From the NCBI GenBank assembly GCA_038087875.1, contig CM075992.1:2358001-2422000 (forward strand): DNA of 64,000 nt. Direction: 5' to 3'. Under the pieces are notes generated by a model. That model did no database searches. It was not told where the DNA came from and saw nothing but the letters and a program-made list of their open reading frames with translations. A program made the position numbers and the translations under genes. The DNA comes from Malacoraja senta. Taxonomy: Eukaryota. Positions 10,676 to 60,453 of the stretch are shown one piece after another. Positions within the stretch are counted from its first letter, which is position 1; each line of letters starts with the position of its first letter.

Positions 10676-10684
10676 TTCACTGCC

Positions 10685-11573: not shown

Positions 11574-11619
11574 CTGTGAAAAGAAAGAAAATGCATTAGA
11601 GTTAAGCAAATTAAGCAGA

Positions 11620-17596: not shown

Positions 17597-19239
17597 TCGG
17601 ATAATACTATACATGAATTCAATCAGGCCAAACTCAAGTACAATAGGAAGAGCAAGAGAAAGGTGCAGAGTGCAGAATATGGTTCTCAGCATTGTAGCGT
17701 AAGTTCCAGAATAAAAGTCCTATGTCCAGAAGCATGACTTCTGCATGTGAAAGGCGACAATATCAGAATTAATGTGTAGGTAGGAACTGCAGATGCTGAT
17801 TTACACCGAAGATAGACTATACATGCTTACAATCGAGCCATTTACAGTGTCTAGGTACTGGATAAGGGCAATAACATTTAGTGCAAGATAAAGTCCAGTG
17901 AAGGAAGGATCTCGACCCAAACTGTCGCCTATCCGTGTTCTCCATGTGATAAGGAATAGGAGCAGAATTAGGCCATTCGGCCCATCAAGTCCTTTCAGTG
18001 ATGACTGTCTTGCTGAGTTACTCCAGCGTTTTGTACCTTTCCTTGGTAAACCAGCATCTGCAGTTCCTTATTTCTACTTATCCAGCCTGGATTTGCTTTG
18101 CCAATCAAAGCAGCCAAACAACTTTAGCCAACAGAGCTTGGCTATGAAGAGAATGTTATTTATGATAAGATATTGATGATGATTAGCTGGAAATTCATTT
18201 CTTGTGGGACGAGGCGCTACTGTCAAAACAAATCAATATTTCTTCCTGTGCATCTGTGCTTTATGTCAGGAAAAAGGAAAATGACATATTTTATTTGCAT
18301 CCATTGAGAATATTGTGTTATGCAAGCCCCTTTGATGCTAAATTTCTTTCCTGTTGTAATGACTTTGATGCCAAGAATCAGAGGAGTTTTCTAGTGTCAT
18401 GACAGCGAATTCCCAACACAAAGTTCCTACATGGAACATACACATTAGTTCCTTTCACATAAGATAGACACAAAAAGCTGGAGTAACTCAGCGGGACAGG
18501 CAGGCAGCATTTCTGGAGAGGAGGAATGGGTCGAGACCCTTCTTCAGACCCTCGACCCGAAACGTCACCCATTCCTTCTCTCCAGAGATGCTGCCTGTCG
18601 CACTGAGTTACTCAGTCTGAAGAAGGGTTTTGGCCCAAAACGTTGCCTATTTCCTTCACTCCATAGATGCTGCCGCACCCGCTGAGTTTCTCCAGCACTT
18701 TTGTCTACCTTCGATTTTCCAGCATCTGCAGTTCCTTCTTAAGCACTGAGTTACTCCATTATTTTGTGTTTATCTTCGCTGTCAACCAACATCTGCAGTT
18801 CCTTCCTCCACAGTTCCTTTCACATGCCCAGCACAGTAATTTAATTACTTTTTTATGACTAGTTACAGTTATTTTGTAAGCAGAGACTGATGGTAGATCA
18901 CATGTTTGCTCGTTAATAGGAAGAAAAGCCAACAACTGTGTGGACATTCCTAATTATAGGAACAATTTACTGAGATCTTGGCTACTCTTATAGTCAGTGC
19001 CACTTTCCTGCCTGACCCCATAACGTTGCTGTGAAGACCAAGTTCAGGCCAAGGTTTCCAATTTCCTGAGCTGTCATTGTCATCAAAACTGGCTTCCATT
19101 TCCCAAAGATAGACACAAAAAGCTGGAGAATAGTTCTCATTCCGCTAACATGCAGAATATGGTGGTAGCGCAACAGCTCCAGGATAAAAGTCTAATGTCC
19201 GCATCACTTCTGCATGTGAAAGACAACATTAACAGAATT

Positions 19240-19875
19240 AAAGGTAGACAAAAATGCTGGAGAAACTCAGTGGGTGAGGCAGCATCTATGGAGTGAAGGA
19301 AATAGGCAACGTTTCGGGTCGAGGCCCTTCTTCAGACTGATGTGAGGATGGGGGGGGGGGGAGGCGGGAAGAAGAAAGGAAGTGGCGGAGCCAGTGGGCT
19401 GAGGGAGAGCTGAGAAGGGGAGGAGAAAGCAGGGACTACCTGAAATTAGAGAAGTCAATGTACATACCGCTGGGGTGCAAACTGCCCAAGCGAAATATGA
19501 GGTGCTGCTCCTCCAATTTATGGTGGTCCTCAGTCTGGCCATGGTGGAGTCCCAGGACAGAAAGGTCGGATTCGGAATGGGAGGGGGAGTTGAAGTGCTG
19601 GGCCACCGGGAGATCAGGTAGGTTAATGCGAACCGAGCGGAGGTGTTGGGCGAAGAGATCGCCAAGCCCACGCTTGGTCTCACCGATGTAGAGCAGCTGA
19701 CATCGAGAGTAGCGGATGCAATAGATGAGGTTGGAGGAGGTGCAGGTGAACCTCTGTCACACCTGGAAAGACTGCTTGGGTCGTTGAATGGAGTCAAGGG
19801 GGGAGGTAAAGAGAGAAGTGTAGCATTTCCTACGGTTGCAAGGGAAAGTGCCGGGAGAGGGGGTGGACGAATTGA
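19240..19875 (-). mobile_element. Penelope-like element 3' part: GIY-YIG endonuclease remnant plus pseudo-LTR (duplicate at ~24977-25610)
   Basis: Minus strand reads PGTFPCNRRKCYT...FTCTSSNLIYCI...YIGETKR...HFNSPSH..DLSVLGL...LEEQHLIFRLGSLHPSG, followed by CTGAAGAAGGGCCTCGACCCGAAACGTT. Confidence 0.88.
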
Positions 19876-22800
19876 CCAGGGAAGGGACGAATTGATCCCT
19901 GGTCATTTTGTCCCTTCCCACTCAAACCACCCACTCTCCTGGCACTTTCCCTTGCAACCACAGGAAATGCTACACTTGTCGATCCCCACCTCTAATCTTG
20001 TTTTCAAGCGTCATTCTATTGAGCAATTACAAGTGGCTTGGGCCAGGGCCCTGCTGAGCTACTGTTCTTTAGCTCAGGCGATTGAGTCATACATGGCACC
20101 ATGCAGATAAACTGCTCAGAGTTGCTGCCGTCAGCAGTTAAGGGAAGTTAAAAGTTCAGTCATATTTATTCATCAGATCGCTTGTCCTCAGAGCAGTGGG
20201 CTCAACTTTCCTGGTTTAGCGAGCCGTACGTGAGCTAGTCTTCCAGTCCTGATCTCTGTTGACAATGTCTATGTTTAGTTTAGTTTCATTTAGAGATACA
20301 GCACGGAAATGGGCCCTGCGACCCATCGGGTCAGTGCAGACCATCGAGCACCCCTTCACACTAGTTCTATGTTGTGCCCCGTTCCCATCCACTCCTTACA
20401 CACCAGGCTTGGAACAATTTACAGCGGACAGTCAACCTACAAAGCTGCAAGCCTTTTGGATGTGGGAGGAAACAAGAACATCCAGAGGAAACCCATGCAG
20501 TCCAATGGAGAACGTGCAAACTCCACACAGACAACATTCGAGGTCAGGATTGAACCTGAGTCTGTGAAGCTGCAGCTCTATGGCTGTAGTGCTGTGAATG
20601 TTTGGACAGATACATAGATACGAAATTTGGAGGGATAAGGGCCAAACGTGGGCAGGTGGGACTGGTGTAGATGGGGCACCTTGGTTGGGGTTGGCAAGTG
20701 GAGCTGAAGGCCCTGTTTCCATGCTGTCTGATTCTATGATTCACTGACTACCTGCATTGATGTCAAATAATAAACAGTAGTTTGTTTCAGTGTGAGAGTT
20801 TCTGCCATGGAATAACCTGCTGATATACAATAAACCCTTTCATATGAAGAACTGCAGAGTTTTAATGTTGGATTCATCAACATCTAGAACACCAGGGAGT
20901 AAGGCCATAAGCTCATAAGTGATAAGAGTAGAATTAGGCCATTCGACCCATCAAGTCTACTCCTCTATTCAATCATGGCTGATCTATCTCTCCCTCCTAA
21001 CCCCATTCTCCTGCCTTCTCCCCATAACCTCTGACACCCGTACTAATCAAGTATCTACCTATCTCTGACTTTAAAATATCCATTGACGTGGCTCCATGGC
21101 TGTTAACAGAATGTTATTGTTTAGTGGTGGGGGAATTTAATGCAGAACTAGGGAGGTAGCACTTCAGATATAGAGAGCATTGGTGAGACCACATCTGGAG
21201 AACCGTGCAAAGTATCGGTCTCCTACTTCATTGGAAGTGGTTTAAAGAAAGTTTATTACAGCCTTCTGAGACAAAGGTGTTGGGTGAAAAGGAAATTCCT
21301 TTTATTCAAGTAAACAATTCAGTCTGCAGTCATCAGATTTTTAGCACTAATGACTGCTTATTATTAGAATATACCAAGGATGTTTAAAGATCAAGGATGT
21401 GTCGGAAACACAACACACTCAGCCTCATTCGATTGATCAAACCGATAACATACAGAATGAAGAAGGGTCTCGACCCAAAACGTCACCCATTCCTTCTCTC
21501 CAGAGATGCTGCCTGTCCCGTTGAGTTACTCCAGCATTTTGTGTCTATCTTCAGTTTAAACCAGTATCTGCAGTTCCTTCCAAAAATACAGAATACATCA
21601 GGATTACCCTTTTGTTAATACAGGAAAATAAAGTTGTTTTGATCAGAAACATTTATTTCAGATATTCCTGTGGGGAGTGAAATCTGAAAACTTGTAAACA
21701 TTCAGAGAATTAGCGAATCTTACAGCCTCAGAGATGGTCATGCTCGTTCTGTTTGGGTTCAATGGCTCAGTGGTCGTATGTACCTAGGTTCAGTGAAATT
21801 CCTTTCGTGCATATCCTTCAGTAAATATCTTATTCTACATAGGCACAATCATATATAGGTCCAAGAGTAGAAACAGGAAACAAGGAACTGCAAATGCTAG
21901 TTTACAAAAAAAAAAAGACACAGTGCTGGAGTAACTCAGCATCTCTGGAGAACATGGACAGGTGACGTTTCGGGTCTGGACCCTTCTTCAGACTTATTGA
22001 AAGGGGGGGGGGCAGTAGTGGTGCAGAAAGAAAGCTGTAAGAGAGGAGGAGGCAGGGACAAAACCGGACATGTAATAAGTTGAAGATAGACACAAAAAGC
22101 TGGAGGAGCTCAGCAGGTCAGGCAGCATCTTTGGGGAAAAGGAATAGGTACATCACATTATCCTTTTCTCCATAGATGCTGCCTGACCTGTCGAGACCCT
22201 TCTTCACACTCGACCTGAAACGTCACCAATTCCTTTTCTCCAGAGATGCTGCCTGACCCTCTGAGTTACTCCAGCTTTCTGTGTCTATCTTCGGTTTAAA
22301 CCAGGATCTGCAGTTCCTTCCTACACATGTAATAATCTGTTGATACAGGTGAGGGGGGTTATTTGATAGGCAATGGTTGGACAAGGCTAAAAATGAAAAG
22401 AGAGACGGTGTGAGACAAAAGGATTTCAGAGTTGCGAAATGTGAAGCTGGAGGAAGGAATGTAGGTGTGAGGGAGGGGGAGGGGAGAAGTGGGTGTAAGT
22501 CCAGGCGGGGGACAGGAAGTGGGGAGAAGGGGGTTGGAAAGAAGAGGATTACATGGGGGAAGAAGAGAGAGGTGAAGACTATTCTGAGGACTCGCAGAAT
22601 GATAGAGTTATAGAGTCATAGAGTGATACAGTGTGGAAACAGGCCCTTCGGCCCAACTTGCCCACACCGGCCAACACATCCCAGCTACACTAGTCCCACC
22701 TGCCCGTGCTTGGTCCATATCCCTCCAAACCTATCCTATCCATGTATTTACGATTTAATGAGAACAGAGGGAACAATAATAAATCTTCTGGCCCTCTCCT

Positions 22801-24118
22801 TTTCCCAGGAGCAGCTGCCAGATCACCTATCCTACATTTCCAATCAGTCACCTCCATGTTGATAGATATTTGGTGCAGGCAGCTTGACATTTTACATTGT
22901 TGACAGCCATCCTTTGAACTGACTCAGCACCAGATTCTTGTTCTTAACCTTTTAATCTTCAGTTTTCATTAATTGAAACAATATGTACTATTTAATAACT
23001 GGTGGAGAGCTTCAGTTGGCAGAGTTCCTGGTTGGCAATGAAGTAGAGATTCTCCGGGGCTTTAAAATGGGTGTCAACATGGAAGATAGAACATTACAGC
23101 ACGGGAATGGGCCCTGCAGCCCACAATTTTCATGCTGAAAAATTATGCCAAGTTAAAACTGGTCTCTTCTGCCTGTACGTGATCCATATCCCTCTATTCC
23201 CTGCAGTCACATGTGCTTCATAAAATACCAATATTGTATCTGCCTGCACCACCACCCCTGGCAATGCGTTCCTAGACCCCACCACTCTCTGCGTGAAAAA
23301 TCTTGCCCCGCACATCTCCATGGCACTCTTGATAGACACAACATGCTGGAGTAACTCAGCGGGACAGGCAGCATCTCTGGAGAGAAGGAATGGGTGACGT
23401 TTCAGGTCGAGACCCTTCTTCAGACTGAGTCAGGGGAGAGGGAGACCAGAGATATGGAAGGGTAAGGTGTGAAATTGACAGATCAAAGCAGATGCTGATA
23501 AGGAAATGTAGAATGGTTTATTGATAGCTGAGGGGAAGGTGACAACGAGGCATACAAACAGTAGAACTAGTCGGAGAACTAGGATGGGGGAGGGATGGAG
23601 AGAGAGGGAACGCAAGGGCCCCTAGCTTATGCACTCCATTGGCAGGGATTACTCCGGCCACTAGAGGGAGCTTGAACCCCTGTTCTGCAGCAACCCACAA
23701 CACAATGAATACATCCTGCATATTTAGCATGAGAACATTCCTAAAGTCTTCACTGAAGTTTTATTAAACAATATTTGGAAATTTCTGGGCTGATTGTCCA
23801 AACTTGGACAACGAGGTCAGTTTTAAATTGGTTTAAAGGGAGTGCAGTTGTGCAGGGAGTGGTGATCTAAGTTCAATTCCAACCTCCCATGCTGTCTGTG
23901 TGGAGTTTGCACGTTCTTCTGTGTGTGCTTGGGTTACCCTCGATGCTCCAAGTTCTTTCCAGGTCCCCAAAGCAAGATGGTCGGTAGATTAATTAGCTGC
24001 TGTGAATGATCTCTGGTGCAGGTGAACAGTGGGTAAATCAGAGGGTGACAATGGGCATCTAGAGAGGGCAGATTGCAGGGAAATACATGGAGGAATGGGG
24101 TTAATAGGGTGGCTCAGG

Positions 24119-24318: not shown

Positions 24319-27300
24319 CTGCCTGTCGCACTGAGGTGACGTTCGGGAGGGTCTGAAGAAGGGTTTTTGGCCCAAAACGTTGCCTATTTCCTTCACTCCA
24401 TAGATGCTGCCGCACCCGCTGAGTTTCTCCAGCACTTTTGTCTACCTTCGATTTTCCAGCATCTGCAGTTCCTTCTTAAGCACTGAGTTACTCCATTATT
24501 TTGTGTTTATCTTCGCTGTCAACCAACATCTGCAGTTCCTTCCTCCACAGTTCCTTTCACATGCCCAGCACAGTAATTTAATTACTTTTTTATGACTAGT
24601 TACAGTTATTTTGTAAGCAGAGACTGATGGTAGATCACATGTTTGCTCGTTAATAGGAAGAAAAGCCAACAACTGTGTGGACATTCCTAATTATAGGAAC
24701 AATTTACTGAGATCTTGGCTACTCTTATAGTCAGTGCCACTTTCCTGCCTGACCCATAACGTTGCTGTGAAGACCAAGTTCAGGCCAAGGTTTCCAATTT
24801 CCTGAGCTGTCATTGTCATCAAAACTGGCTTCCATTTCCCAAAGATAGACACAAAAAGCTGGAGAATAGTTCTCATTCCGCTAACATGCAGAATATGGTG
24901 GTAGCGCAACAGCTCCAGGATAAAAGTCTAATGTCCGCATCACTTCTGCATGTGAAAGACAACATTAACAGAATTAAAGGTAGACAAAAATGCTGGAGAA
25001 ACTCAGTGGGTGAGGCAGCATCTATGGAGTGAAGGAAATAGGCAACGTTTCGGGTCGAGGCCCTTCTTCAGACTGATGTGAGGATGGGGGGGGGGGGAGG
25101 CGGGAAGAAGAAAGGAAGTGGCGGAGCCAGTGGGCTGAGGGAGAGCTGAGAAGGGGAGGAGAAAGCAGGGACTACCTGAAATTAGAGAAGTCAATGTACA
25201 TACCGCTGGGGTGCAAACTGCCCAAGCGAATATGAGGTGCTGCTCCTCCAATTTATGGTGGTCCTCAGTCTGGCCATGGTGGAGTCCCAGGACAGAAAGG
25301 TCGGATTCGGAATGGGAGGGGGAGTTGAAGTGCTGGGCCACCGGGAGATCAGGTAGGTTAATGCGAACCGAGCGGAGGTGTTGGGCGAAGAGATCGCCAA
25401 GCCCACGCTTGGTCTCACCGATGTAGAGCAGCTGACATCGAGAGTAGCGGATGCAATAGATGAGGTTGGAGGAGGTGCAGGTGAACCTCTGTCACACCTG
25501 GAAAGACTGCTTGGGTCGTTGAATGGAGTCAAGGGGGGAGGTAAAGAGAGAAGTGTAGCATTTCCTACGGTTGCAAGGGAAAGTGCCGGGAGAGGGGGTG
25601 GACGAATTGACCAGGGAAGGGACGAATTGATCCCTGGTCATTTTTGTCCCTTCCCACTCAAACCACCCACTCTCCTGGCACTTTCCCTTGCAACCACAGG
25701 AAATGCTACACTTGTCGATCCCCACCTCTAATCTTGTTTTCAAGCGTCATTCTATTGAGCAATTACAAGTGGCTTGGGCCAGGGCCCTGCTGAGCTACTG
25801 TTCTTTAGCTCAGGCGATTGAGTCATACATGGCACCATGCAGATAAACTGCTCAGAGTTGCTGCCGTCAGCAGTTAAGTTAAAAGTTCAGTCATATTTAT
25901 TCATCAGATCGCTTGTCCTCAGAGCAGTGGGCTCAACTTTCCTGGTTTAGCGAGCCGTACGTGAGCTAGTCTTCCAGTCCTGATCTCTGTTGACAATGTC
26001 TATGTTTAGTTTAGTTTCATTTAGAGATACAGCACGGAAATGGGCCCTGCGACCCATCGGGTCAGTGCAGACCATCGAGCACCCCTTCACACTAGTTCTA
26101 TGTTGTGCCCCGTTCCCATCCACTCCTTACACACCAGGCTTGGAACAATTTACAGCGGACAGTCAACCTACAAAGCTGCAAGCCTTTTGGATGTGGGAGG
26201 AAACAAGAACATCCAGAGGAAACCCATGCAGTCCAATGGAGAACGTGCAAACTCCACACAGACAACATTCGAGGTCAGGATTGAACCTGAGTCTGTGAAG
26301 CTGCAGCTCTATGGCTGTAGTGCTGTGAATGTTTGGACAGATACATAGATACGAAATTTGGAGGGATAAGGGCCAAACGTGGGCAGGTGGGACTGGTGTA
26401 GATGGGGCACCTTGGTTGGGGTTGGCAAGTGGAGCTGAAGGCCCTGTTTCCATGCTGTCTGATTCTATGATTCACTGACTACCTGCATTGATGTCAAATA
26501 ATAAACAGTAGTTTGTTTCAGTGTGAGAGTTTCTGCCATGGAATAACCTGCTGATATACAATAAACCCTTTCATATGAAGAACTGCAGAGTTTTAATGTT
26601 GGATTCATCAACATCTAGAACACCAGGGAGTAAGGCCATAAGCTCATAAGTGATAAGAGTAGAATTAGGCCATTCGACCCATCAAGTCTACTCCTCTATT
26701 CAATCATGGCTGATCTATCTCTCCCTCCTAACCCCATTCTCCTGCCTTCTCCCCATAACCTCTGACACCCGTACTAATCAAGTATCTACCTATCTCTGAC
26801 TTTAAAATATCCATTGACGTGGCTCCATGGCTGTTAACAGAATGTTATTGTTTAGTGGTGGGGGAATTTAATGCAGAACTAGGGAGGTAGCACTTCAGAT
26901 ATAGAGAGCATTGGTGAGACCACATCTGGAGAACCGTGCAAAGTATCGGTCTCCTACTTCATTGGAAGTGGTTTAAAGAAAGTTTATTACAGCCTTCTGA
27001 GACAAAGGTGTTGGGTGAAAAGGAAATTCCTTTTATTCAAGTAAACAATTCAGTCTGCAGTCATCAGATTTTTAGCACTGATGACTGCTTATTATTAGAA
27101 TATACCAAGGATGTTTAAAGATCAAGGATGTGTCGGAAACACAACACACTCAGCCTCATTCGATTGATCAAACCGATAACATACAGAATGAAGAAGGGTC
27201 TCGACCCAAAACGTCACCCGTTCCTTCTCTCCAGAGATGCTGCCTGTCCCGTTGAGTTACTCCAGCATTTTGTGTCTATCTTCAGTTTAAACCAGTATCT

Positions 27301-29849
27301 GCAGTTCCTTCCAAAAATACAGAATACATCAGGATTACCCTTTTGTTAATACAGGAAAATAAAGTTGTTTTGATCAGAAACATTTATTTCAGATATTCCT
27401 GTGGGGAGTGAAATCTGAAAACTTGTAAACATTCAGAGAATTAGCGAATCTTACAGCCTCAGAGATGGTCATGCTCGTTCTGTTTGGGTTCAATGGCTCA
27501 GTGGTCGTATGTACCTAGGTTCAGTGAAATTCCTTTCGTGCATATCCTTCAGTAAATATCTTATTCTACATAGGCACAATCATATATAGGTCCAAGAGTA
27601 GAAACAGGAAACAAGGAACTGCAAATGCTAGTTTACAAAAAAAAAAAGACACAGTGCTGGAGTAACTCAGCATCTCTGGAGAACATGGACAGGTGACGTT
27701 TCGGGTCTGGACCCTTCTTCAGACTTATTGAAAGGGGGGGGGGCAGTAGTGGTGCAGAAAGAAAGCTGTAAGAGAGGAGGAGGCAGGGACAAAACCGGAC
27801 ATGTAATAAGTTGAAGATAGACACAAAAAGCTGGAGGAGCTCAGCAGGTCAGGCAGCATCTTTGGGGAAAAGGAATAGGTACATCACATTATCCTTTTCT
27901 CCATAGATGCTGCCTGACCTGCCGAGACCCTTCTTCACACTCGACCTGAAACGTCACCAATTCCTTTTCTCCAGAGATGCTGCCTGACCCTCTGAGTTAC
28001 TCCAGCTTTCTGTGTCTATCTTCGGTTTAAACCAGGATCTGCAGTTCCTTCCTACACATGTAATAATCTGTTGATACAGGTGAGGGGGGTTATTTGATAG
28101 GCAATGGTTGGACAAGGCTAAAAATGAAAAGAGAGACGGTGTGAGACAAAAGGATTTCAGAGTTGCGAAATGTGAAGCTGGAGGAAGGAATGTAGGTGTG
28201 AGGGAGGGGGAGGGGAGAAGTGGGTGTAAGTCCAGGCGGGGGACAGGAAGTGGGGAGAAGGGGGTTGGAAAGAAGAGGATTACATGGGGGAAGAAGAGAG
28301 AGGTGAAGACTATTCTGAGGACTCGCAGAATGATAGAGTTATAGAGTCATAGAGTGATACAGTGTGGAAACAGGCCCTTCGGCCCAACTTGCCCACACCG
28401 GCCAACACATCCCAGCTACACTAGTCCCACCTGCCCGTGCTTGGTCCATATCCCTCCAAACCTATCCTATCCATGTATTTACGATTTAATGAGAACAGAG
28501 GGAACAATAATAAATCTTCTGGCCCTCTCCTTTTCCCAGGAGCAGCTGCCAGATCACCTATCCTACATTTCCAATCAGTCACCTCCATGTTGATAGATAT
28601 TTGGTGCAGGCAGCTTGACATTTTACATTGTTGACAGCCATCCTTTGAACTGACTCAGCACCAGATTCTTGTTCTTAACCTTTTAATCTTCAGTTTTCAT
28701 TAATTGAAACAATATGTACTATTTAATAACTGGTGGAGAGCTTCAGTTGGCAGAGTTCCTGGTTGGCAATGAAGTAGAGATTCTCCGGGGCTTTAAAATG
28801 GGTGTCAACATGGAAGATAGAACATTACAGCACGGGAATGGGCCCTGCAGCCCACAATTTTCATGCTGAAAAATTATGCCAAGTTAAAACTGGTCTCTTC
28901 TGCCTGTACGTGATCCATATCCCTCTATTCCCTGCAGTCACATGTGCTTCATAAAATACCAATATTGTATCTGCCTGCACCACCACCCCTGGCAATGCGT
29001 TCCTAGACCCCACCACTCTCTGCGTGAAAAATCTTGCCCCGCACATCTCCATGGCACTCTTGATAGACACAACATGCTGGAGTAACTCAGCGGGACAGGC
29101 AGCATCTCTGGAGAGAAGGAATGGGTGACGTTTCAGGTCGAGACCCTTCTTCAGACTGAGTCAGGGGAGAGGGAGACCAGAGATATGGAAGGGTAAGGTG
29201 TGAAATTGACAGATCAAAGCAGATGCTGATAAGGAAATGTAGAATGGTTTATTGATAGCTGAGGGGAAGGTGACAACGAGGCATACAAACAGTAGAACTA
29301 GTCGGAGAACTAGGATGGGGGAGGGATGGAGAGAGAGGGAACGCAAGGGCCCCTAGCTTATGCACTCCATTGGCAGGGATTACTCCGGCCACCAGAGGGA
29401 GCTTGAACCCCTGTTCTGCAGCAACCCACAACACAATGAATACATCCTGCATATTTAGCATGAGAACATTCCTAAAGTCTTCACTGAAGTTTTATTAAAC
29501 AATATTTGGAAATTTCTGGGCTGATTGTCCAAACTTGGACAACGAGGTCAGTTTTAAATTGGTTTAAAGGGAGTGCAGTTGTGCAGGGAGTGGTGATCTA
29601 AGTTCAATTCCAACCTCCCATGCTGTCTGTGTGGAGTTTGCACGTTCTTCTGTGTGTGCTTGGGTTACCCTCGATGCTCCAAGTTCTTTCCAGGTCCCCA
29701 AAGCAAGATGGTCGGTAGATTAATTAGCTGCTGTGAATGATCTCTGGTGCAGGTGAACAGTGGGTAAATCAGAGGGTGACAATGGGCATCTAGAGAGGGC
29801 AGATTGCAGGGAAATACATGGAGGAATGGGGTTAATAGGGTGGCTCAGG
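24319..29849 (+). repeat. Near-identical tandem copy of ~18590-24118 (probable false duplication)
   Basis: Offset 5731-5737; identical ORF series; both copies end at the gap. Confidence 0.9.
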
Positions 29850-30150
29850 AGCCTGCACAGACTTGATGGGCTGAATGGCCACATGCTGTGTTGAGACACA
29901 ATACGGGAAGAGGAAAGAAGTAACAAGATGAAGAGATATTGGGAGGGAAATCCAGAACTTGGGACCTTGCACGCTGAAGGTAGGGATGTTGATGGGACAA
30001 GATGGATTCAGGCAATGAGTCAGAGAATTGAGGAAGCACAGAGACCCAGGAAAGATACATGGACAAGGAGAGACCAGAGTGCAGGGAGGAATTTCTTCAC
30101 AAAGACCTGGAATTTCCAAGGAGGTTTGGCCTAATCAGCTGGGAGAAGTT

Positions 30151-42478: not shown

Positions 42479-42545
42479 ATGGATGCGGGACTCACGCCGT
42501 GGGCTGGATACGTTTACATTTTGTCCTCGTTGTTCACTGTGGCAG
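42479..42545 (+). CDS. ICAM/VCAM-family gene exon 1 (signal peptide MDAGLTPWAGYVYILSSLFTVA)
   Basis: ACTATGG Kozak context, hydrophobic leader, phase-1 donor CAG|GTACCT that joins exon 2 in frame. Not in the ORF track. Confidence 0.75.
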
Positions 42546-44382
42546 GTACCTGTGGCGAGGCTGCGCTGTTTTTCAGGTTGTGATCTGACCGCGGTTACCG
42601 GTAACACAGAGGGGGCTGTGGTCATTTGTGCTCAGATGCTGGGGGTTTGGGTTGGCTGGAGCTGGTTCTTGGTGGGAGAAAACTTGTCCATGGCGTCGCC
42701 GACCCCCACCCCCCTCTCCCCCTCTCCCACCCCAGTTCCCCTTCATCTCTGGCAGAACCGACACCCTGAACTGGCCACTGATTTATCGTCGCTTCTAACA
42801 GGGAGATTCTCGGGTCCGGACCGCAGTTGGAGTTTAGAAACATGGAAAACAGGTGCAGGAGGAGGCTATTTGTCCCTTCGAGCCAGCACCGCCATTCATT
42901 GTGATCATGGCTGATCATCCACAATCAGTAACCCATGCCTGCCTTCTCCCCATATCCCTTGATTCCACTAGCCCCTAGAGCTCTATCTAACTCTCTCTTA
43001 AATTCATCCAGTGATTCTCTTTTAAATTAATCCAGTGAATTGGCCTCTGCTGCCTTCCGTGGCAGAGAATTCCACAAATTCACAACTCTCTGGGTGGAAA
43101 AGTTTCGTTTATAGACACACAAAATGCTGGAGTAACTCAGCGGGGTTAGGCATCATCTCTGGAGAACATAGAGAGTGACTTTATTGGTCAGGACCCGTCT
43201 TCATATTGAATGGCGGTGCTGGCTCGAAGGGCCGAATGGCCTATTACTGCACCTATTTTTTATATTTCAGACTGAGAGTTTAGTTTAGTTTATTATCAAA
43301 GGTTTAATGTCGAGGTCCAGTGGAAAGCTTCCACGTCCTGATTCATATTCAGGTCCAGTGAAAGGTGAAATATTTACAGGGATGGAGTTACAGGGACGGG
43401 GTGGCTGTTCTAATGTAAAACACAAAGTGCTGGAGGAACTCGGCGGGTCAGGCTGCGTCTATGGAGGGAAATGGTCGGGCAACGTTTCGGGTCGGGACCC
43501 TTCAGACTGACGGAGAAGGATGATGGGGTGGGGTGAGGAAGCTGGAAAAACGACCTCATGCTTCATCAGAAAGGTCCCGATCTGAAGCGTCGTGTGTCCG
43601 CTCCCTCCACAGACGCTGCCTGAGCCGCTGAGTTCCTCCAGCAACTGCGTTTAGCGCAAGGAGCACCTTGAGCGGTCACGGTGGCGCTGCGGTAGAGTTA
43701 TAGTTGCTGCCTATACAGCGCTTGCAGCGCCGGAGACCCGGGTTCCATCCCCACTACGGGTGCTGCCTGGACGGAGTTTGTACGTTCTCCCCGTGACCTG
43801 CGTGGGTTTTCTCCGAGATCTTCGGTTTCCTCCCACACTCCAAAGACGTGCAGGTTTGTAGATTAATTGGCTTGATTAATTTGCCTGATAAAATGTAAAA
43901 TTGTCCAGAGCTGAGTCTCTGTAGCGTTCTACATCCAGATAGACACAAAATGCTGGAGGAACTCAGCGGGACAGGCAGCATCTCTGGAGAGAGAAGGAAT
44001 GGGTGACGTTTTGGGTCGAGACCCTTCTTCAGTACAACTTCTCACCAGAGATGCTGCCTGTCCCGCTGAGTTACTCCGGCTTTTTGTGTCTATCTTCGGT
44101 TTAAACCGGCATCTGCTGTTCCTTCCTACACACCCTTCAGCAACAGACTGGTTCCACCAAGATGCAGCACAGAATGCCACAGGAGATCCTTTTTCCTTGT
44201 GGCTATCAAACTGTACGACTCAGGGAGAATCTTACAGACAGCACCTGTAGTCAGGATCGTCTCTGGCGCTGTGAGGCAGCAACTCTACCGCTGCGCCAAT
44301 GTGCTGCCCTTGGATTTTCATTATCTATTATCTGTACTACATTTAACGTGATTTGTTCTCTTGTCCAACATTGTGACTACAG

Positions 44383-44631
44383 ATACAGTATTGATCAAAG
44401 CAGAACCGTCTGCTGTGGAATTTGGACGTCCTTTGGTGGTGAACTGCAGTTCATCTTGTGTAGCAACAAATATATTAATGGAAGGAAGGAGAGGATCTAA
44501 TGAAACCAAACAGCCTGAGTGGTTGGCATATTCTTTCTCGACAGTTACGTCGTGGTATCTTCGAATGTATTGCTCTGTGACCTGCTCATCTGGGAAAAGG
44601 GATTCCCTGGACACAATAATTCCTGTCTACA
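44383..44631 (+). CDS. ICAM/VCAM-family gene exon 2 (N-terminal four-cysteine Ig domain)
   Basis: TACAG| acceptor and |GTAAGT donor; DTVLIKAEPSAVEFGRPLVVNCSSSC..ILMEG..W......MYCSVTC..IPVY; paired CxxxC motifs typical of ICAM/VCAM/MAdCAM domain 1. Confidence 0.92.
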
Positions 44632-47574: not shown

Positions 47575-50460
47575 TACCTGTCTAACTGTTTCTTAAACGT
47601 TGGGATAGTCCCAGCCTCAACTACCTCCTCTACACCCACCACCCTTTGTGTGAAAAAGTTACCTCTCAGATTCCTATTAAACCTTTTCCCCTTCACCTTG
47701 AACCTACAGTGTGTCCTCTGGTCCTTGATTCCCCTACTTTGGGCAAGAGATCTGTGCATCTTCCCTCAGTATAGTAAACGCTCATAATAACGGACCACGT
47801 TTCGGGGGTGGGGGGATGGTGCCCGTTATTGCCGATTGTCTGCTATAACCGGGTGAGGGGGGGGGGGGGGTAAAGTTTAACCCAGGGGTGTGAGGGAAGA
47901 AATGCGGCGTTGCAGAGGGGGTTAAACAAGCAGGAATTCACGGGGCAGGGAGCCGCAGAGACCCCGGCCCCTCATGCAGAGAGCTGGGGACGTGTCCAGT
48001 ACTCACTCTGTCTTCATGCTGCTCACTCACTCCCCTCCCAAAGCTGAACCAGATGCTCCCATCACCAACAACAAGGTACAATATGTGTACCAGCACCAAT
48101 AGACAGTAGACAATAGGTGCAGGAGTAGGCCATTCGGCCCATTCAATGTGATCATGGCTGATCATCCCCAATCAGTACCCCGTTCCTGCCTTCTCCCCAT
48201 ACCCCCTGACTCCGCTATCTTTAAGAGCCCTATCTAGTTCTCTCTTGAAAGTATCCAGAGAACCGGCCTCCACCGCCTTCTGAGGCAGAGAATTCCACAG
48301 ACTCACAACTCTCTGTGTGAAAAAGTGTTTCCTCATCTCCGTTCTAAATGGCTTACCCCTTATTCTTAAACTGTGGTCCCTGGTTCTGGACTCCCCCAAC
48401 ATCGGGAACATGTTTTAGCTACCAAACACATTTTAGCTACCGAAAAAAGCTCCGATCTCCTCAGTCCAATAAAAACCCAGAGCATGTTAAACTAGTGGCC
48501 ATGAACAATTCTTAAGTGATGCAGTAGTGACCTCTCCTGCTTCAACACACTGGTTGTGGTATAACTATTTAGACAACTATTTCAGATAAGCCTGTTCCAG
48601 CAGCCCCACGTTAATGGAGTCGATTGTGTCTAAAAATACTGACACAGGATCTCGTTTTCTCTTATCTGCAGCTCAGATGACATAAAGTGTTTAGTTTATT
48701 TATCCAGAGGAAATGGGTTGCCAGAGGAACACATTTTTGCTGTTAGAGCTCTTTTTAAACAAGATTGTTGAAAGTTAAATCAGTGCTGCCTCCTCACCCT
48801 TCCATCCCTCACATAATTCCTTCCCTGATTACAATATCCTGACCATTATTATTTCATAATATAGTTCATATTTTTCATGTAAATGATACCGCAATCATTC
48901 TAACTTTTAATTTATTTCCTGATTATAAAATTGTGACCATTATAATTCCATAATGTTTGGATTATTGGAGTGTTTATTTGGAGTATTGCTTGCAGTTCTG
49001 GTTGCCCCTTTACAGAAAGATGCAGAGGCTTAGTTTAGTTTAGAGATACAGCACGGAATCAGGCACTTTGGCCCACTGGGTCCGCACCAACCAGTGATGT
49101 CTGCAAACTAACTCTATCTACACACACTAAGGACAATTTACATTTATACCAAGCCATCCACATCCACCAGCGATCCCCGCACATTAACACTATTCCACAC
49201 ACTAGGGACAGTTTACATTCGTACGGAGCCAATTAACCCACATATCTGTACACCTTTGGAGTGAGGGAGGCAATCGAAGATCTCGGAGAAAACCCACGTG
49301 GTCACGGGAAGAACGTACAAACTCTGTACAGACAGCACCCGTAGTCGGGTTCGAACCCGGGACTCTGGTGCTGTAAGTTAGCAACTCTACCGCTGTGCCA
49401 TCGCGCTGCCCTTTGGAGTAGGTTTAGCAGAATGCTGCCTGGATTGGAGGTTTTTAGCTATAGGGAGAGGTTGGATAGACTTGGACTTCTTTCTTTGGAA
49501 CGTAGGAGGTTGAGGGGTGACTTGATAGATGTATACACAATTATGAGAGGCCATACAGTCAGAACCTTTCTCCCAGGGTGGAAATGTCTTATACTAGGGG
49601 GCGTAACTATAAGGTGAGAGGTGGGAAGTTTAATAGAGATGTGTGGGGCAAGTTACATTTTACACAGAGAGTGCTGGGGGCCCAGAACACATTGCCGAGG
49701 GTGGTGGTGGAGGTAGATGCGATAAAAACATTTAGGAGGCTTTTGGATAGGCATAAGAAAGTGCAGGGAATAGAGGGATATGGATCATGTACAGGCAGAT
49801 GAGATCAGTTTCAATTTGGAATCATGTTGGGCACAGACATCGTGGGCTGAAGGGCCCGTTCCTGTAATGTTCTATGTTCTATAATATAGTTAATATTTTC
49901 ATCTAATAGATACCTCAACCATTCTAACTTTGGTCTTACTAAATAATCTATAATACCCATTTGTGGAAAAACATACACCTCTAGTTCAGTTCAGTTTAGT
50001 TCATTGTCACGTGTCTCGAGCTACAGGGAATAGCTTTTGTTACGTGCTAACTAGCCAGTGGAAAGACAATACATGATTACAATCGAGCCTTTTACAGTGT
50101 ACAAATATATGAAAAGGGAATAACATTTAGTGCAAGGTAAAGCCAGCAAAGTCTGATCAATGATAGTCTGAGGGTCATCAATGTTGTAGATCGTAGTTCA
50201 GCACTGATCACTGGTTACACTTGGCTTCCTATTAAATCTTTCCCCCCCTCACCTTAAACCTATAAACTGGAATAGAAAATTAAGAGGGCATATTTGACAA
50301 TGGGTTTTAGTGAATGGAAGTTCTGTTGCACGTTGACTCTATTTTGAATCTTCAGTGAAACATGTTCAAATACAGGCAGGTTCGATGATTACTGTCAACA
50401 GTCCTTTAACACATCGTAATGCCTCGATGATTACTGTCCATTGCGATTGTATTTCAACAG

Positions 50461-50775
50461 ATCGAGAGTTGAACATTACTTCCCCTCCTGAAGTGTTGGA
50501 AATTAATACAACATATAGCCTGGAATGCACTGGCCCCAGGGTCTATCCTAACAATAAGCTCATACTCAAATGGCAAAGAGGAAACGAGATCATCCAGACC
50601 AATTCCACAGAAGAAAAAGGTATCCTGAATGAGGATAAACGATTAAGGAATGTCTTACAATTTACTGCAAGGACTACGGACGATGGACAGGTTTATACCT
50701 GCGTGGCAGAAGTAGACCTAGGCTCCAACACCACTTTGCAAATCACAAACTCCTCCGTGACCTTGCAAACTTACC
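50461..50775 (+). CDS. ICAM/VCAM-family gene exon 3 (Ig domain 2)
   Basis: CAACAG| acceptor, |GTAAGT donor, phase 1/1; YSLECTGPRVYPNNKLILKWQRGNE...FTARTTDDGQVYTCVAEVDL resembles ICAM/VCAM domain 2. Confidence 0.93.
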
Positions 50776-51434: not shown

Positions 51435-51713
51435 GTGAACCTCGAAGCACAATGATATCAGTAAATAACCAAAGCTCATCAGAGTCTCCAGTGCATGTGG
51501 CTGGTGGGGACAGCGTCACCTTAGTCTGTGATACACTGGGGAACCCAGAGCCAACATTAAAATGGGAATACCCTGAAAGTACCAACATTGCAATCAATAC
51601 TTCCGCAGTCCTCTATATTTCTGAAGCCACGACGGAAAATAATGGAATATACAAATGTACTGCTAGCAATAAATATGGAGCTGATGAGAACAAAGTGGAG
51701 ATCAAAGTGAAAG
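51435..51713 (+). CDS. ICAM/VCAM-family gene exon 4 (I-set-like Ig domain 3)
   Basis: Polypyrimidine tract + ACAG| acceptor, G|GTCAGT donor; GDSVTLVCDTLGNPEPTLKW...LYISEATTENNGIYKCTASNKYG. Confidence 0.94.
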
Positions 51714-51861
51714 GTCAGTTTAAAAACGATGGCTGTTGATTAAAATACTTACCTTCATCCCTACAAATTAAACTGATGCCAAAAGGAAATCAGCCGCAAC
51801 ACCGGTTCCTAGTTTTCTTTTGTTTTAGTTTCTGTCGAGGGGACCCTGCAACGGTCATAAG

Positions 51862-53747
51862 AGTAGGGAAAATAGATTATGAAAGAAAACTGGCAGGGAA
51901 CATAAAAACTGACTGCAAAAGTTTTTATAGATATGTGAAGAGAAAAAGATTAGTTAAAACAAATGTAGGTCCCTTGCATTCAGAAACTGGTGAATTGATC
52001 ATGGGGAACAAGGATATGGCAGACCAATTGAATAACTACTTTGGTTCTGTCTTCACTAAGGATGACATAAATAATCTGCCGGAAATAGCAGGGGACCGGG
52101 GGTCAAATGAGATGGTGGAACTGAGTGAAATCCCGGTTAGCCGGGAAGTGGTGTTAGGTAAATTGAATGGATTAAAGGCCGATAAATCCCCAGGGCCAGA
52201 CAGGCTGCATCCCAGAGTACTTAAGGAAGTAGCCCCAGAAATAGTGGATGCATTAGTGATAATTTTTCAGAACTCTTTAGATTCTGGTGTAGTTCCTGAG
52301 GATTGGAGGGTAGCTAATGTAACCCCACTTTTTAAAAAGGGAGGGAGAGAGAAAACGGGGAATTACAGACCAGTTAGTCTAACATCGGTAGTGGGGAAAA
52401 TGCTAGAGTCAGTTATTAAAGATGGGATAGCAGCACATTTGGAAAGTGGTGAAATCATTGGACAAAGTCATCATGGATTTATGAAAGGTAAATCATGTCT
52501 GACGAATCTTATAGAATTTTTCGAGGATGTAACTAGTAGAGTGGATAAGGGAGAACCAGTGGATGTGTTATATCTGGACTTTCAAAAGGCTTTCGACAAG
52601 GTCTCACATAAGAGATTAGTATGCAAAATTAAAGCACACGGTATTGGGGGTTCAGTATTGATGTGGATAGAGAACTGGCTGGCAGACAGGAAGCAAAGAG
52701 TAGGAGTAAACGGGTCCTTTTCAGAATGGCAGGCAGTGACTAGTGGGGTACCGCAAGGCTCAGTGCTGGGACCCCAGCTATTTACAATATATATTAATGA
52801 CCTGGATGAGGGAATTGAATGCAACATCTCTAAGTTTGCGGATGACACGAAGCTGGGGGGCAGTGTTAGCTATGAGGAGGATGCTAGGAGGCTGCAAGGT
52901 GACTTGGATAGGTTGGGTGAGTGGGCAAATGCATGGCAGATGCAGTATAATGTGGATAAATGTGAGGTTATCCACTTTTGTGGCAAAAACAGGAAAGTAG
53001 ACTATTATCTGAATGGTGGCCGATTAGGAAAAGGGGAGATGCAACGAGATCTGGGTGTCATGGTACACCAGTCATTGAAAGTAGGCATGCAGGTGCAGCA
53101 GGCAGTGAAGAAAGCGAATGGTATGTTAGCATTCATAGCAAAAGGATTTCAGTATAAGAGCAGGGAGGTTCTACTGCAGTTGTACAGGGTCTTGGTGAGG
53201 CCACACCTGGAGTATTGCGTACAGTTTTGGTCACCGAATCTGAGGAAAGACATTCTTGCCATAGAGGGAGTACAGAGAAGGTTCACCAGACTGATTCCTG
53301 GGATGGCAGGACTTTCATACGAAGAAAGACTGGATAGACTCGGCTTGTACTCGCTAGAATTTAGAAGATTGAGGGGGGATCTTATAGAAACTTACAAGAT
53401 TCTTAAGGGGTTGAACAGGCTAGATGCAGGAAGATTGTTCCCGATGTTGGGGAAGTCCAGAACAAGGGTAAGGGGGAAGTCTTTTAGGACCGAGATGAGA
53501 AAATCATTTTTCACGCAGGGAGTGGTGAATCTGTGGAATTCTCTGCCACAGAAGGTAGTTGATGCCAGTTCATTGGCTATATTTAAGAGGGAGTTAGATG
53601 TGGCTCTTGTGGCTAAAGGGATCAGGGGGTGTGGAGAGAAGGCAGGTACAGGATTCTGAGTTGGATGATCAGCCATGATCATATTGAATGGCGGTGCAGG
53701 CTCGAAGGGCCGAATGGCCTACTACTGCACCTATTTTCTATGTTTCT
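51862..53747 (+). mobile_element. Young 5'-truncated CR1 LINE with uninterrupted RT reading frame, in intron 4, present only in the right arm
   Basis: About 600 open codons (KSPGPD, NYRPVSLTS, YLDFQKAFDKV, GVPQGSVLGP, KFADDTKL); flanked by ATAAG direct repeat (51857-51861, 53748-53752); empty site at ~11140-11150. Confidence 0.96.
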
Positions 53748-54215
53748 ATAAGTGATCGGAGCAGAAGTAGACCATTCGGCCCATCAAGTCTACTCCGCAA
53801 TTCAATCATGGCTGATCTATCTCTCCCTCCTAACCCCATTCTCATGCGTTCGCCCCATAACCTCTGACACATGTACTAATCAAAAAGCTATCTATCTCTG
53901 CCTTAAAAATATCCATTGACTTGGTCTCCACAGACTTCTGTGGCAATTAATTCCCCAGATTCACCACCCTCTGATTAAAGAAATTCCTCCCCATCTCCTT
54001 TCTAAAGGTGTGTCCTTTAATTCTGAGGTTTTGCCATCTGGTCCTAGACTCTCCCACTAGTGGAAACATCCTCCCCACAACCACTCTATCCAGGCCTTTC
54101 ACTATTCGGTACGTTTCAATGAGGTCCCCCCTCATCTTTCTAAACACCAGCGAGTACAGGCCCAGTGCTGTCAAACACTCATAGTCCCACTCATTCCTGG
54201 GATCCAGGCTGTGAA

Positions 54216-54346
54216 GCTGATGAGAACAAAGTGGAGATCAAAGTGAAAGGTCAGTTTGAAAACTTGATGTCTGTTGATTAAAATACTTACCTTCATCCCA
54301 ACAAACTAAAAGTCTGCCAAAAGCAAATCAGCCTAAACACCGGTTC
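54216..54346 (+). repeat. Diverged intronic duplicate of exon 4 3' end, donor and intron start (source 51680-51808)
   Basis: GCTGATGAGAACAAAGTGGAGATCAAAGTGAAAG|GTCAGT...CACCGGTTC repeated. Confidence 0.9.
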
Positions 54347-54933
54347 AACAAGAGTGAGTGAAAGATCAGACGTTCCCCCACACCACTCACAACTCCTGGC
54401 TTCAAACGTGCTTCACTGTCCCACCCGTCACCATCGAACCATTCTGTCCAACTATACATTCTCACCCACTTGTGTGTGACAGGTCTACAATACCGTGCGC
54501 TGCAATGCCAGAGTATAGTCATACAGCACGGAAACAAGCCCTTTGGCCCATCTTGTCCATGCCGACAAAGATGCCCCAGCCCACCGACCCCAGTTAGAAG
54601 GCCTCTATCCTTCCCAACTGTTCCTATCTATTATGTATTGTCCAGAACAATAACCACAACAGTGGTTGTGTGAAGTAATGAAACAGTGATTTACTAACTA
54701 ACTTTGAACAGGGTACATCACCCTAACCTACGTAAAATGGCTGCAGTCTAACAAACGGTGTCCTAGCCGAGTCCCGCACAAGTCCCGTGATTGAACGGTG
54801 TTCCCAAACTACCGTGCCCGCACACACCCGTAACATTCCTGGCCGGCAGGGACGCCAGAGCTCACACACGCAAGATGCCGGTGCGTAAACAGAAACTGAT
54901 GTGAAAGTTAAGCAGCACCGTGGCGCAGTGGTA

Positions 54934-55066
54934 AGGGCCTGTCCCACTTGGCTGTCATTTGCGTGCCATTTACGCGACCTCGTCGCGTTGTGATGCACGG
55001 GTAGCGCGTGGATGACGCGCGAAGGGCGCATGGTGAGGCGTGGATGCGTATGGAGTTGCGCGCGAT
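54934..55066 (+). mobile_element. 133-bp Harbinger terminal fragment between two 80-bp direct repeats (54854-54933, 55067-55146)
   Basis: Reverse complement of 9825-9957. Confidence 0.92.
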
Positions 55067-55130
55067 GCCAGAGCTCACACATGCAAGATGCCGGTGCGTA
55101 AACAGAAACTGATGTGAAAGTTAAGCAGCA

Positions 55131-55418
55131 CCGTGGCGCAGTGGTAGAGTTGCTGCCTTACAGCACCAGAGACCTGGGTTCGATCCTCACTACGGGTGCT
55201 GTCTGTACGGAGTTTACACTTTCTCCCGGTGACCACGTGGGTTTTCTCTGGGTGCTTCGGTTTCCTCCCACACTCCAAACGCGCGCACACTTGTAGGTAA
55301 TTGGCATCGGTAAGAATTGTAAATTATCTCTCGTGTGTAGGATAGTGTTAGTGTGTGGGGATTGCTGGTCAGCACGGACTCGGTGGGCCCATTTACATGC
55401 TGTATCTCTAAACTAAAC
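55131..55418 (+). mobile_element. HE1-type V-SINE (its left-arm counterpart is the Harbinger insertion site)
   Basis: CCGTGGCGCAGTGGTA|GAGTTGCTGCC head, V-domain, TAAACTAAAC tail. Confidence 0.88.
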
Positions 55419-55537
55419 TGCAAAGAACAAATATCTGCCTTACATAAGATTAACATTTGTCTTCAAATTAATTATTGTTGAAATAGATTATACTGTAGTT
55501 AGCTTTACAAATCATTTTGTTCTGATTATCTCTACAG

Positions 55538-55701
55538 ATAAATCCGCGATCATCATAGGAGTAAGTGTAACGGCACTGGCCACAGCAACCCTTGCAAGTG
55601 GGGCGGTTATTTATTACTTGTACCAAAAGGCTCAGAAATCACAAGAATACAAATTACGGAATGCAAAGCCTCGCAACAATCCACAGGTGCTCAGCGGATA
55701 G
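55538..55701 (+). CDS. ICAM/VCAM-family gene exon 5 (TM and cytoplasmic tail, stop)
   Basis: TCTACAG| phase-1 acceptor; DKSAIIIGVSVTALATATLASGAVIYYLYQKAQKSQEYKLRNAKPRNNPQVLSG*; tail resembles ICAM-1 YLYNRQRKIKKYRL. Too short for the ORF track. Confidence 0.9.
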
Positions 55702-58390: not shown

Positions 58391-59300
58391 GGGGCTCGAC
58401 CTGAAACGTCACCCATTCCTTCCCTCCAGAGACGCTGCCTGTCCCGCTGAGTTACTCCAGCATTTTGTGTCTATCTTTGGTTTAGTTAGTTCAGTTTAGT
58501 TTATTGTCACGTGTACCAAGGTACAGTGAAAAGCTTTTGTTGTGTGTTAGCGGAAATACAATACATGATTACAATCAAGCCATTTACAGTGTATAGATAC
58601 ATGATAAGAGAATAACGTTTAGTGCAAGGTATAGACGGTAAAGTCCAATCAAAGATAGTCCGAGGGTCACCAATGAGCAGTGCTGAACTACTATCTACCT
58701 CATTTGTGACCCTCGGACTATCCTTGATTGGACTTTACTGGCTTTGCCTTGCACTAAACGTTATTCTCTTATCATGTATCTGCACACTGTAAATCGCTCG
58801 AATGTAATCATGTATTGCCTTTGCCAATTGAATAGACAAATGAATGTACACAGGGCCACGACACTGGAGATACTGGCCTGGAAGAGGACACTGATCTTAG
58901 ATCGCCTTGAAAACTCACGCCAAAACAAGCAGTTGCAAATGACAATATTAGAAAATGCTTCTAGATCAACATCAGGTGCAAATTGTTCTTATTTGCCAGT
59001 AAACTAAGAGTTTTGATGAGGGCTTCCAGCAAGCATTCAGGGGAAGCAGTGCATCAATTTACAATCAGTGTTCTGGATGACGTTTCCTAACTCTGTAAAT
59101 TTCCCCACAAACCAGAAGAATGCCCTCGGCCCTTCTCTCTGTAGCTCTTTGACCTTCCTTTATTTTAACGTATTATTTCCTTTCCTTTGACGTTTCAAAC
59201 CGTAATCTTACTTAAATCTATCGACTTCTCCTTCCTCCTTTAGTATGTTTCTTTAAAATTATTCTGTGTCCTTGACCGAAACATAACAGTGAAATTCTTA

Positions 59301-59519
59301 AGGCCCTGTCCCACTTGCCGATTTTTTTCGGCGACTGCCGGCGTCATATCAGTGTCGCCAAAAGATTTTGAACATTTCAAAATCCCCCAAAAATGTTGCG
59401 ACACTTGAAAAAACACTGTGTGTCACCGCCGCGTCCTGCCGTTAATTTTTCGGTGACCTGATACGTCAGTCAATGATGTCGGCAGTCGCCAAAAAAAATC
59501 GCCAAGTGGGACAGGCCCT
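59301..59519. mobile_element. Complete 219-bp Harbinger-related MITE
   Basis: ~47-bp imperfect TIRs starting AGG(C/G)CCTGTCCCACTTG; flanks TTA| and |TAA. Confidence 0.92.
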
Positions 59520-59661
59520 TAAAACTCATTAATAAAGTCAGGATATGAGGCTTTGCAATCACTTGCATGAGTGCTGATGAATAGCTGCCGTTTATAACAA
59601 TAACAAGATTCAAATTGAGCCCTTGTGTTACTCACTGTCTGTTCTCTGGTTTAGTTGATTG

Positions 59662-60280
59662 AAACATAGAAACATAGAAACATAGAAAATAGGCGCAGGA
59701 GTAGGCCATTCGGCCCTTCGAGCCTGCACCGCCATTCAATATGATCATGGCTGATCATCCAACTCAGTATCCTGTACCTGCTTTCTCTCCATACCCCCTG
59801 ATCCCTTTAGCCACAAGGGCCACATCTAACCCTCTTAAATATAGTCAATGAACTGGCCTCAACTACCTTCTGTGGCAGAGAATTCCAGAGATTCATCACT
59901 CTCTGTGTGAAAAATGTTTTCCTCATCTCGGTCCTAAAAGATTTCCCCCTTATCCTTAAACTGTGACCCCTTGTTCTGGACTCTCCCAACATCGGGAACA
60001 ATCTTCCTGCATCTAGCCTGTCCAACCCCTTAAGAATTTTGTACGTTTCTATAAGATCCCCCCTCAATGTTCTAAATTCTAGCGTGTACAAGCCAAGTCT
60101 ATCCAGTCTTTCTTCATATGAAAGTCCTGACATCCCAGGAATCAGCCTGGTGAACCTTCTCTGTACTCCCTCTATGGCAAGAATGTCTTTCCTCAGATTA
60201 GGGAGACCAAAACTGTACGCACTATTCCAGGTGTGGTCTCACCAAGACCCTGTACAACTGCAGTAGAACCTCCCTGCTAT
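59662..60280 (-). mobile_element. CR1 3' fragment of the young family
   Basis: GLSYEERLDRLGLYTLEFR...; (TTTCTATG)n tail on the minus strand at 59662-59690. Confidence 0.93.
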
Positions 60281-60453
60281 ACTCAATGAATCAATAGCAA
60301 TTGAGTCATTTGTGGATCTTTGAACGAACAGATTGTACAAAGTAAACAGAGAAATGTATCATTTGTATGTACTGTTCAACATAAAATAAACGTTTCCAAA
60401 AGAAAATCAGAGCAATGGTAAAAAAAATTGTATACTGGTTAAGTTTTGTCATC

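Follow-up and report, generated by a model that had tools for sequence, protein, structure and literature searches.

Several described systems come close to the locus reported here. In mouse cells, conversion tracts were found to be ended by microhomology joining (PMC5104497); in C. elegans helq-1 and brc-1 mutants, tandem duplications arise by polymerase-theta joining of failed SDSA intermediates (PMC8654963). Pseudogene donors are described for interlocus gene conversion, and hairpin-forming sequence is enriched in or near the converted tracts (PMC3966225). Human translocation breakpoints have been located at the centre of palindromes with minimal homology (PMC4255720); short inverted repeats fold back in single-stranded ends, and hairpins are opened by MRX-Sae2 or Artemis (PMC7999016).

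The DNA analysed (64,000 nucleotides of Malacoraja senta, contig CM075992.1; hereafter the window) displays in intron 4 of an intact gene a gain of 213 bases, made up of an 80-bp duplication and a 133-bp end of a Harbinger transposon. Judged by its sequence, the event resembles a known repair outcome, namely aborted HR with end joining, and departs from plain conversion and canonical SDSA at its right end; the sequence features expected of aborted HR with TMEJ were found (one homologous end, a short microhomology and duplication of the copied stretch). As in PMC5104497, one end would copy the donor and then be linked to the second through microhomology-mediated end joining; that study relied on a reporter cut by a nuclease, with the sister chromatid as donor, whereas the present event is heritable and involves a paralog diverged by 2%. 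As in PMC8654963, an extended end would fail in annealing and be end-joined at very short microhomology, the copied stretch being duplicated. Different from C. elegans are the non-allelic donor, the splitting of the 80-bp duplication by 133 bp of transposon DNA exclusive to the donor, the visible conversion tract preceding the duplication and the lack of a known repair mutation. A one-way transfer between close paralogs, probable at this locus, is also known from interlocus conversion (PMC3966225); plain conversion has two homologous ends, whereas here one homologous and one non-homologous end were found and no exon is altered.

The junction at a symmetry centre, the minimal homology and the predicted fold-back of a short inverted repeat have their likeness in PMC4255720 and PMC7999016. 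The events described there are translocations at AT-rich palindromes or fold-backs giving large palindromic duplications; in contrast, the palindrome found here is a GC-rich one of 32 bp in a transposon end, half of which is retained in a local insertion. In the main text of PMC5104497 there are 0 occurrences of 'palindrom' and 'hairpin', and a literature search that covered few subscription journals yielded the general mechanisms but no description of a conversion tract that stops at the apex of a palindrome.

Self-comparison of the window revealed an inverted segmental duplication: blocks within 9825–23425 and 34483–55066 lie on opposite strands with 91–99% identity. The right arm is predicted to carry an intact five-exon ICAM/VCAM-like gene of the Ig superfamily (plus strand): coding part of exon 1, likely a signal peptide, approximately 42479–42550 (tblastn with P0014/P0015); exon 2, ICAM_N domain (PF03921, E=1e-7), 44383–44631; exon 3, Ig domain, 50461–50775, and exon 4, I-set domain, 51435–51713 (both by domain search and tblastn); exon 5, with a tail up to the stop codon following a predicted transmembrane segment, 55538–55701. 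Exons 2–5 are separated by GT-AG introns and contain 0 internal stops; an ICAM_N domain, further Ig domains, a transmembrane exon and an open frame, i.e., the features of an ICAM/VCAM-like gene, are thus all present at the sequence level. In comparison with an Amblyraja radiata protein, 289/334 residues of exons 2–5 are identical (exon 3, 92%). A protein search with exon 3 gave 53 matches, the named ones being cartilaginous-fish proteins, mostly ICAM/VCAM-like. Exon 2 (44383–44631) is ca. 65% identical to the skate-type proteins P0014 and P0015; for exons 3–5 the values are 88–94%. ICAM_N would be a fast-evolving N-terminal domain, as pressure from a ligand or pathogen might lead one to expect.

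The left copy (11290–12549, minus strand) comprises remnants of exons 3 and 4 and is devoid of exons 1, 2 and 5, the right-arm exons 2 and 5 having no counterpart there; since it keeps just two exons and has a TGA in exon 3 at ca. 12429, it is a pseudogene. The exon identity is like that of other elasmobranch ICAM/VCAM-like genes; the additional feature of the present gene is an inverted, partly deleted pseudogene twin ca. 40 kb off.

In the right arm only, and in the same intron upstream of the tract described below, there is a LINE-like insertion (51862–53747, plus strand) with a long open frame (51740–53659), the designation 'LINE' being a reading of the translation without a repeat-library match. 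The frame has 639 codons with putative reverse-transcriptase-like motifs, and related copies are located at 1270–2248 and 59660–60286. Farther downstream, 54212–54346 (plus strand) is an old partial duplicate of the end of exon 4 and the start of the intron (90% identity to 51676–51808). It is found in both arms (54212–54346 and 10545–10679), and its upstream joint is spanned by a contig of a related organism (organism B, run X3). An intact-looking splice donor is retained in this duplicate at ca. 54249, within intron 4.

The pseudogene arm bears a decayed and truncated Harbinger (4303–9957, minus strand), the second end of which is missing; the element interrupts a SINE. A DDE_Tnp_4 transposase in two frames (4337–5187, plus strand; PF13359, E=1e-17) and an MADF/Myb-SANT ORF (9078–9617, minus strand; PF10545, E=2e-4 and 21.9 bits, the cut-off being 22) assign it to PIF/Harbinger, as judged by the combination of DDE_Tnp_4 and Myb/SANT. 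A nested insertion at ca. 6200–7900 with a DUF659 match (ca. 7184–7492; E=7e-7, below the cut-off) may derive from a different DNA transposon. At 4302/4303 the Harbinger is cut and joined to 3484–4302, a direct copy of 29289–30090 (95.8%) and 23558–24118 (97.7%), which suggests that 3484–4302 is a remnant of a third duplication unit. A short non-autonomous element at ca. 59300–59520 has termini near-identical to those of the Harbinger and TTAA on both sides; these flanks and the left-arm site would fit a target duplication of TA or TTAA rather than one of 3 bp.

In the comparison of the arms, 54211–55066 (plus strand) was the reverse complement of 9825–10680 (minus strand) at 856/856 positions (ungapped, coordinate sum 64891), and directly upstream, in 53748–54210, 11 mismatches per 463 bp were counted. 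The mismatch-free match at a constant coordinate sum that the initial annotation had described, next to differing arm sequence, is hereby corroborated. The divergence of the arms amounts to 324 difference events in 12,797 columns of eight non-redundant blocks (three blocks matching the duplicate beside the N gap were left out), or 2.7% excluding the tract and 2.1% locally, so 18–23 differences would be expected in 856 bases. The second-longest identical run between the arms is 326 bp; a run of 856 was reached in 0/20,000 permutations, the maximum being 583, or 732 with the six least-diverged blocks. The arm alignment that had been proposed as a check accordingly gave 0/856 mismatches against a background of 2.1–2.7%, i.e., the identity above the paralog background that interlocus gene conversion demands. 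The stretch 9825–10680 is the likely donor, or one among several identical donors. Divergence since the transfer is below 0.35% (95% bound).

The left edge of the tract needs a qualification. The mismatch at 54210, from which the arms had been said to differ, is real; as the true left boundary it is doubtful, since 178 identical bases precede it. At this position the left-arm-type A is present in the contigs of all four sequencing runs examined, so the tract may begin at 54032 instead of 54211, with a length of 1,035 bp and one later change. A tie between the start of the tract and the 135-bp duplicate from exon 4 was not retained as an explanation: the letter at 54210 looks later or private, and the joint of the duplicate is also present in organism B. 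In organism B, 13 differences from the tract per ca. 246 bases and 20 per 398 were counted, compared with 14/320 and 9/152 around exon 5; the tract is thus ca. 5% diverged from this organism and resembles the exon 5 region. Selective constraint as the source of the tract identity is ruled out by this divergence inside the tract.

The insert has the following structure (plus strand): first copy of the 80-bp unit with donor-type letters, ending in the 5' tip of a SINE, 54854–54933; Harbinger terminus of 133 bp, comprising the terminal repeat and GC-rich subterminal DNA and cut at the centre of a palindrome, 54934–55066; the 80-bp unit for the second time, here likely representing the second DNA end as it originally stood, 55067–55146. 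The stretch 55125–55419, which we take to be a SINE (no repeat-library match), is unbroken across 55146/55147 and ca. 77–83% identical to other copies in the window. The two 80-bp units have one certain difference, C at 54869 against T at 55082, and the first is preceded by C at 54853. Several particulars of the initial annotation were therefore reproduced: the 133-bp run into the Harbinger followed by a jump back of 80 bp, CACACG in the first copy against CACATG in the second, and an uninterrupted SINE after the latter. Taken as paralogs, the 80-bp units have a likelihood ratio of ca. 4 (one difference) or ca. 75 (two differences) relative to an allele-level rate of 0.11%, figures weakened by the fact that both sites are CpG and that the allele rate was derived from the gap-flanking duplicate described below, assumed to be allelic.

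The 10-nt microhomology GA(C/T)GCCAGAG claimed for the jump was not found. The donor reads GAT followed by ATCGCGCG and the acceptor GA(C/T) followed by GCCAGAG, just GA, or GAT with an ancestral T, being common to both sides; GCCAGAG is the beginning of the duplicated unit and not microhomology. The junction microhomology is accordingly GAT at 55064–55066 (plus strand), 2 nt of which are certain and 3 with the ancestral T. The right end of the tract is a non-homologous joint, so that resolution of both ends in homologous register did not occur, and the annealing over extended homology that defines canonical SDSA is replaced by 2–3 nt in common. A microhomology of this length points to microhomology end joining or a template switch and not to the out-of-register re-annealing by SDSA that had been invoked.

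The donor junction (9825/9824) coincides with the symmetry axis of CGCGCGAT/ATCGCGCG, a feature that the initial annotation does not mention. Around it lies a spacerless quasi-palindrome of 32 bp (9809–9840; 14/16 pairs) with a perfect 16-bp core (9817–9832), and the junction thus falls at the symmetry centre, as in palindrome-directed breakpoints. The core is the only perfect palindrome of at least 12 bp in the 5.6-kb Harbinger; in a scan for palindromes of 16+16 bases, 14/16 at the axis was the best value in the 64-kb window, two others reaching 13. For the 32-mer as single-stranded DNA a folding energy of −13.2 kcal/mol was predicted, with a 4-base loop ATAT at the axis; the predicted fold of the 201-base region around the palindrome surpassed all 200 shuffles (z = −3.5). 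Given four equivalent positions, the junction would meet the axis by chance with a probability of roughly 2% if 200 bases are considered and 0.07% for the entire element; these values belong to a post hoc test of one event, made after the junction was seen. According to the predicted fold, a junction at the tip would fit better with a fold-back strand opened at its loop, or with priming on the loop, than with stalling of synthesis, because a hairpin in the template would stall synthesis ca. 16 bases earlier, at its base.

Sequences of other organisms were compared in a repeat-crowded sample, namely the contigs of four runs (X1, X2, X3 and X6) among 24 listed. A 406-nt contig of organism B (X3) aligns with 54537–54933, its last 8 letters being unaligned, and shows no entry into the Harbinger; its depth, 53, compares with 49–55 around exon 5. 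By these contigs, organism B is a carrier of one copy with no Harbinger at the insert site, and the insert would for this reason be derived. A full Harbinger at 54933 in an outgroup, which the initial annotation had regarded as an argument for excision, is absent from the contig of organism B. At 54853, the whole of the depth that covers the site in organisms B and C has T, and the tract and the left arm have C, so that C is the derived donor letter and GAT likely the ancestral microhomology.

Depths in organism A (X1) are 99.8 and 63.6 in the tract compared with 24.7 at exon 5 (2.6–4×), and in organism C (X6) 153 compared with 70 (ca. 2×); contig depth is, by the warning of the tool, not equal to copy number. 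These depths hint at further near-identical copies beyond the window, and the donor need therefore not be the left arm itself. X1, which contains 80% of the sampled window words, and X2 carry a contig with T at 54853 (depth 30.3 in X1) that is perhaps an unconverted copy. An X2 contig runs 28 nt into the Harbinger, possibly originating from the left arm; nothing can be concluded from the low depth that X2 has around exon 5. Neither the 55066/55067 junction nor a skip of the 213 bases was seen among the contigs listed for the four runs.

The best-supported direction of transfer appears to be from a paralog of pseudogene type to the live gene, in view of the letters found in the outgroups, the decay of the donor element and a difference between the 80-base units that resembles one between paralogs. 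The Harbinger insertion is likely to be older than the copying into the live gene, because the element is long and decayed and the tract is less than 0.35% diverged. Pseudogene-to-gene repair, as proposed in the initial annotation, is favoured as to its direction (T at 54853, no Harbinger in organism B); the left arm is the likely donor or one of several. We consider the locus to be best explained, with a probability of about 55%, by repair of a break through copying of a Harbinger-bearing paralog, the overlong copy having been end-joined at the tip of the predicted hairpin. A break or gap in intron 4 would leave the second end at ca. 55064–55067; the other end would invade the paralog at or before 54211 and copy at least 856 bases, synthesis passing the 80 bases where re-annealing was due and entering the transposon. 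Past the palindrome, the displaced single strand would fold back and be cut at the tip, and the new end would be joined via GAT by polymerase-theta-type end joining. Against this explanation, 80 nearly perfect bases were available for annealing and yet unused, and a quasi-palindrome of 32 bp is short for a fragile site.

The unused 80-bp homology would be accounted for by FoSTeS/MMBIR, in which a leftward fork stalls at ca. 55067, is primed via GAT on the loop of the donor hairpin, copies out of the Harbinger through the homologous intron and returns by homology near 54032–54211; GAT moreover overlaps the unpaired ATAT loop at the axis. A primer of 3 nt must, however, find a site ca. 45 kb off, and longer microhomologies lie nearby (36 with a length of 6 nt or more, the longest having 8 nt), so this course is regarded as unlikely; its donor, direction and product are those of break repair with end joining, and the two are inseparable on the window sequence. 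Slightly less probable still is the opposite transfer, from gene to pseudogene: a Harbinger resident in an allele of the live gene would have been copied into the left arm and broken at the palindrome centre, the distal end being rebuilt from a Harbinger-free allele with an overshoot of 80 bases and end joining. Palindrome-mediated rearrangements typically break at the symmetry centre and show minimal homology (PMC4255720), and the left arm ending inside the Harbinger would be explained. Two or three events are required, however, and the 80-bp units differ beyond the expectation for alleles; the element here is moreover GC-rich and 32 bp long, whereas the human breakpoints lie in palindromic AT-rich repeats. 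Such human repeats are far longer than 32 bp.

An artefact, either mixing of paralogs in the assembly or a chimeric long read, was judged improbable. The region assembles badly, as seen from a gap of 200 N with a flanking 5.5-kb duplicate of 99.6% identity, the junction and the T at 54210 were not seen among the contigs listed, and just 80% of the sampled words are contained in X1; on the other hand, a join that rests on 3 nt of homology is not to be expected from an assembler, letters proper to the right arm (2% divergent) persist upstream, and the X2 contig enters the Harbinger by 28 nt, though the left arm could be its source. A hybrid gene, formed by unequal exchange with a third paralog, duplicated recently and lying outside the window, in which the Harbinger was already truncated, would agree with the depths of 2.6–4 copies in X1 and ca. 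2 in organism C and with 3484–4302 being a further direct copy of 29289–30090; it merely relocates the origin of the same junction, no such paralog is present in the window, and its probability is very low. Hardly credible is the alternative named in the initial annotation, in which a Harbinger left the live gene by excision and the gap was abortively repaired. Products of abortive gap repair retain one transposon end, as does the insert; the second end would, however, begin at the insertion site, and the actual one carries 80 bases upstream of it, so that the 80-bp duplication needs a further template switch. Excision furthermore leaves 643 identical upstream bases unexplained and is at variance with organism B, in which the element is missing from the site.

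For the gene itself the event has little consequence: only an intron is changed, the reading frame remains open and the pseudogene is without the ICAM_N exon. The tract begins 2,498 bp after exon 4 and stops 471 bp before exon 5, and the intron change is likely neutral, with no exon altered. Two donor-like GT motifs, at 54931 and 55033, are added by the insert; a simple pattern scan gave no acceptor-like motif in it, and hence no new exon is predicted. The suggestion that the pseudogene serves as a sequence donor close to the Ig exons has fared poorly: the arm copies still differ at 2/315 bases in exon 3 and 5/279 in exon 4, and exons 1, 2 and 5 are missing from the pseudogene, which is unable to donate to the fastest-evolving domain because exon 2 is absent there.

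The locus offers a clear-cut natural case of a repair outcome studied mostly in reporters and repair mutants; thanks to the 2% divergence of the donor and to its transposon, which serves as marker, it can be read at the level of single bases. The junction at the palindrome axis provides a testable lead on what halts runaway conversion tracts. It is a speculative proposal, with the odds clearly against it, that a subterminal palindrome of the Harbinger family ends ectopic homologous repair by fold-back, opening at the tip and end joining; if true, Harbinger copies would be recurrent sites of base-exact rearrangement in skate genomes, and the locus would preserve a natural trace, in the germline, of gene conversion terminated by a hairpin.

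Two further similarities were noted in the window. The direct duplicate that flanks the 200-N gap (18591–24118 and 24319–29849; 5.5 kb, 99.6%, 6 substitutions) has its differences clustered at one end and is probably an unmerged contig overlap or a retained haplotype. In intron 2, 48896–49591 differs from ca. 13972–13285 by 1 substitution and one 8-bp indel in ca. 690 bases; a span as similar as this arose in 37/20,000 permutations, and it is possibly an older conversion tract.
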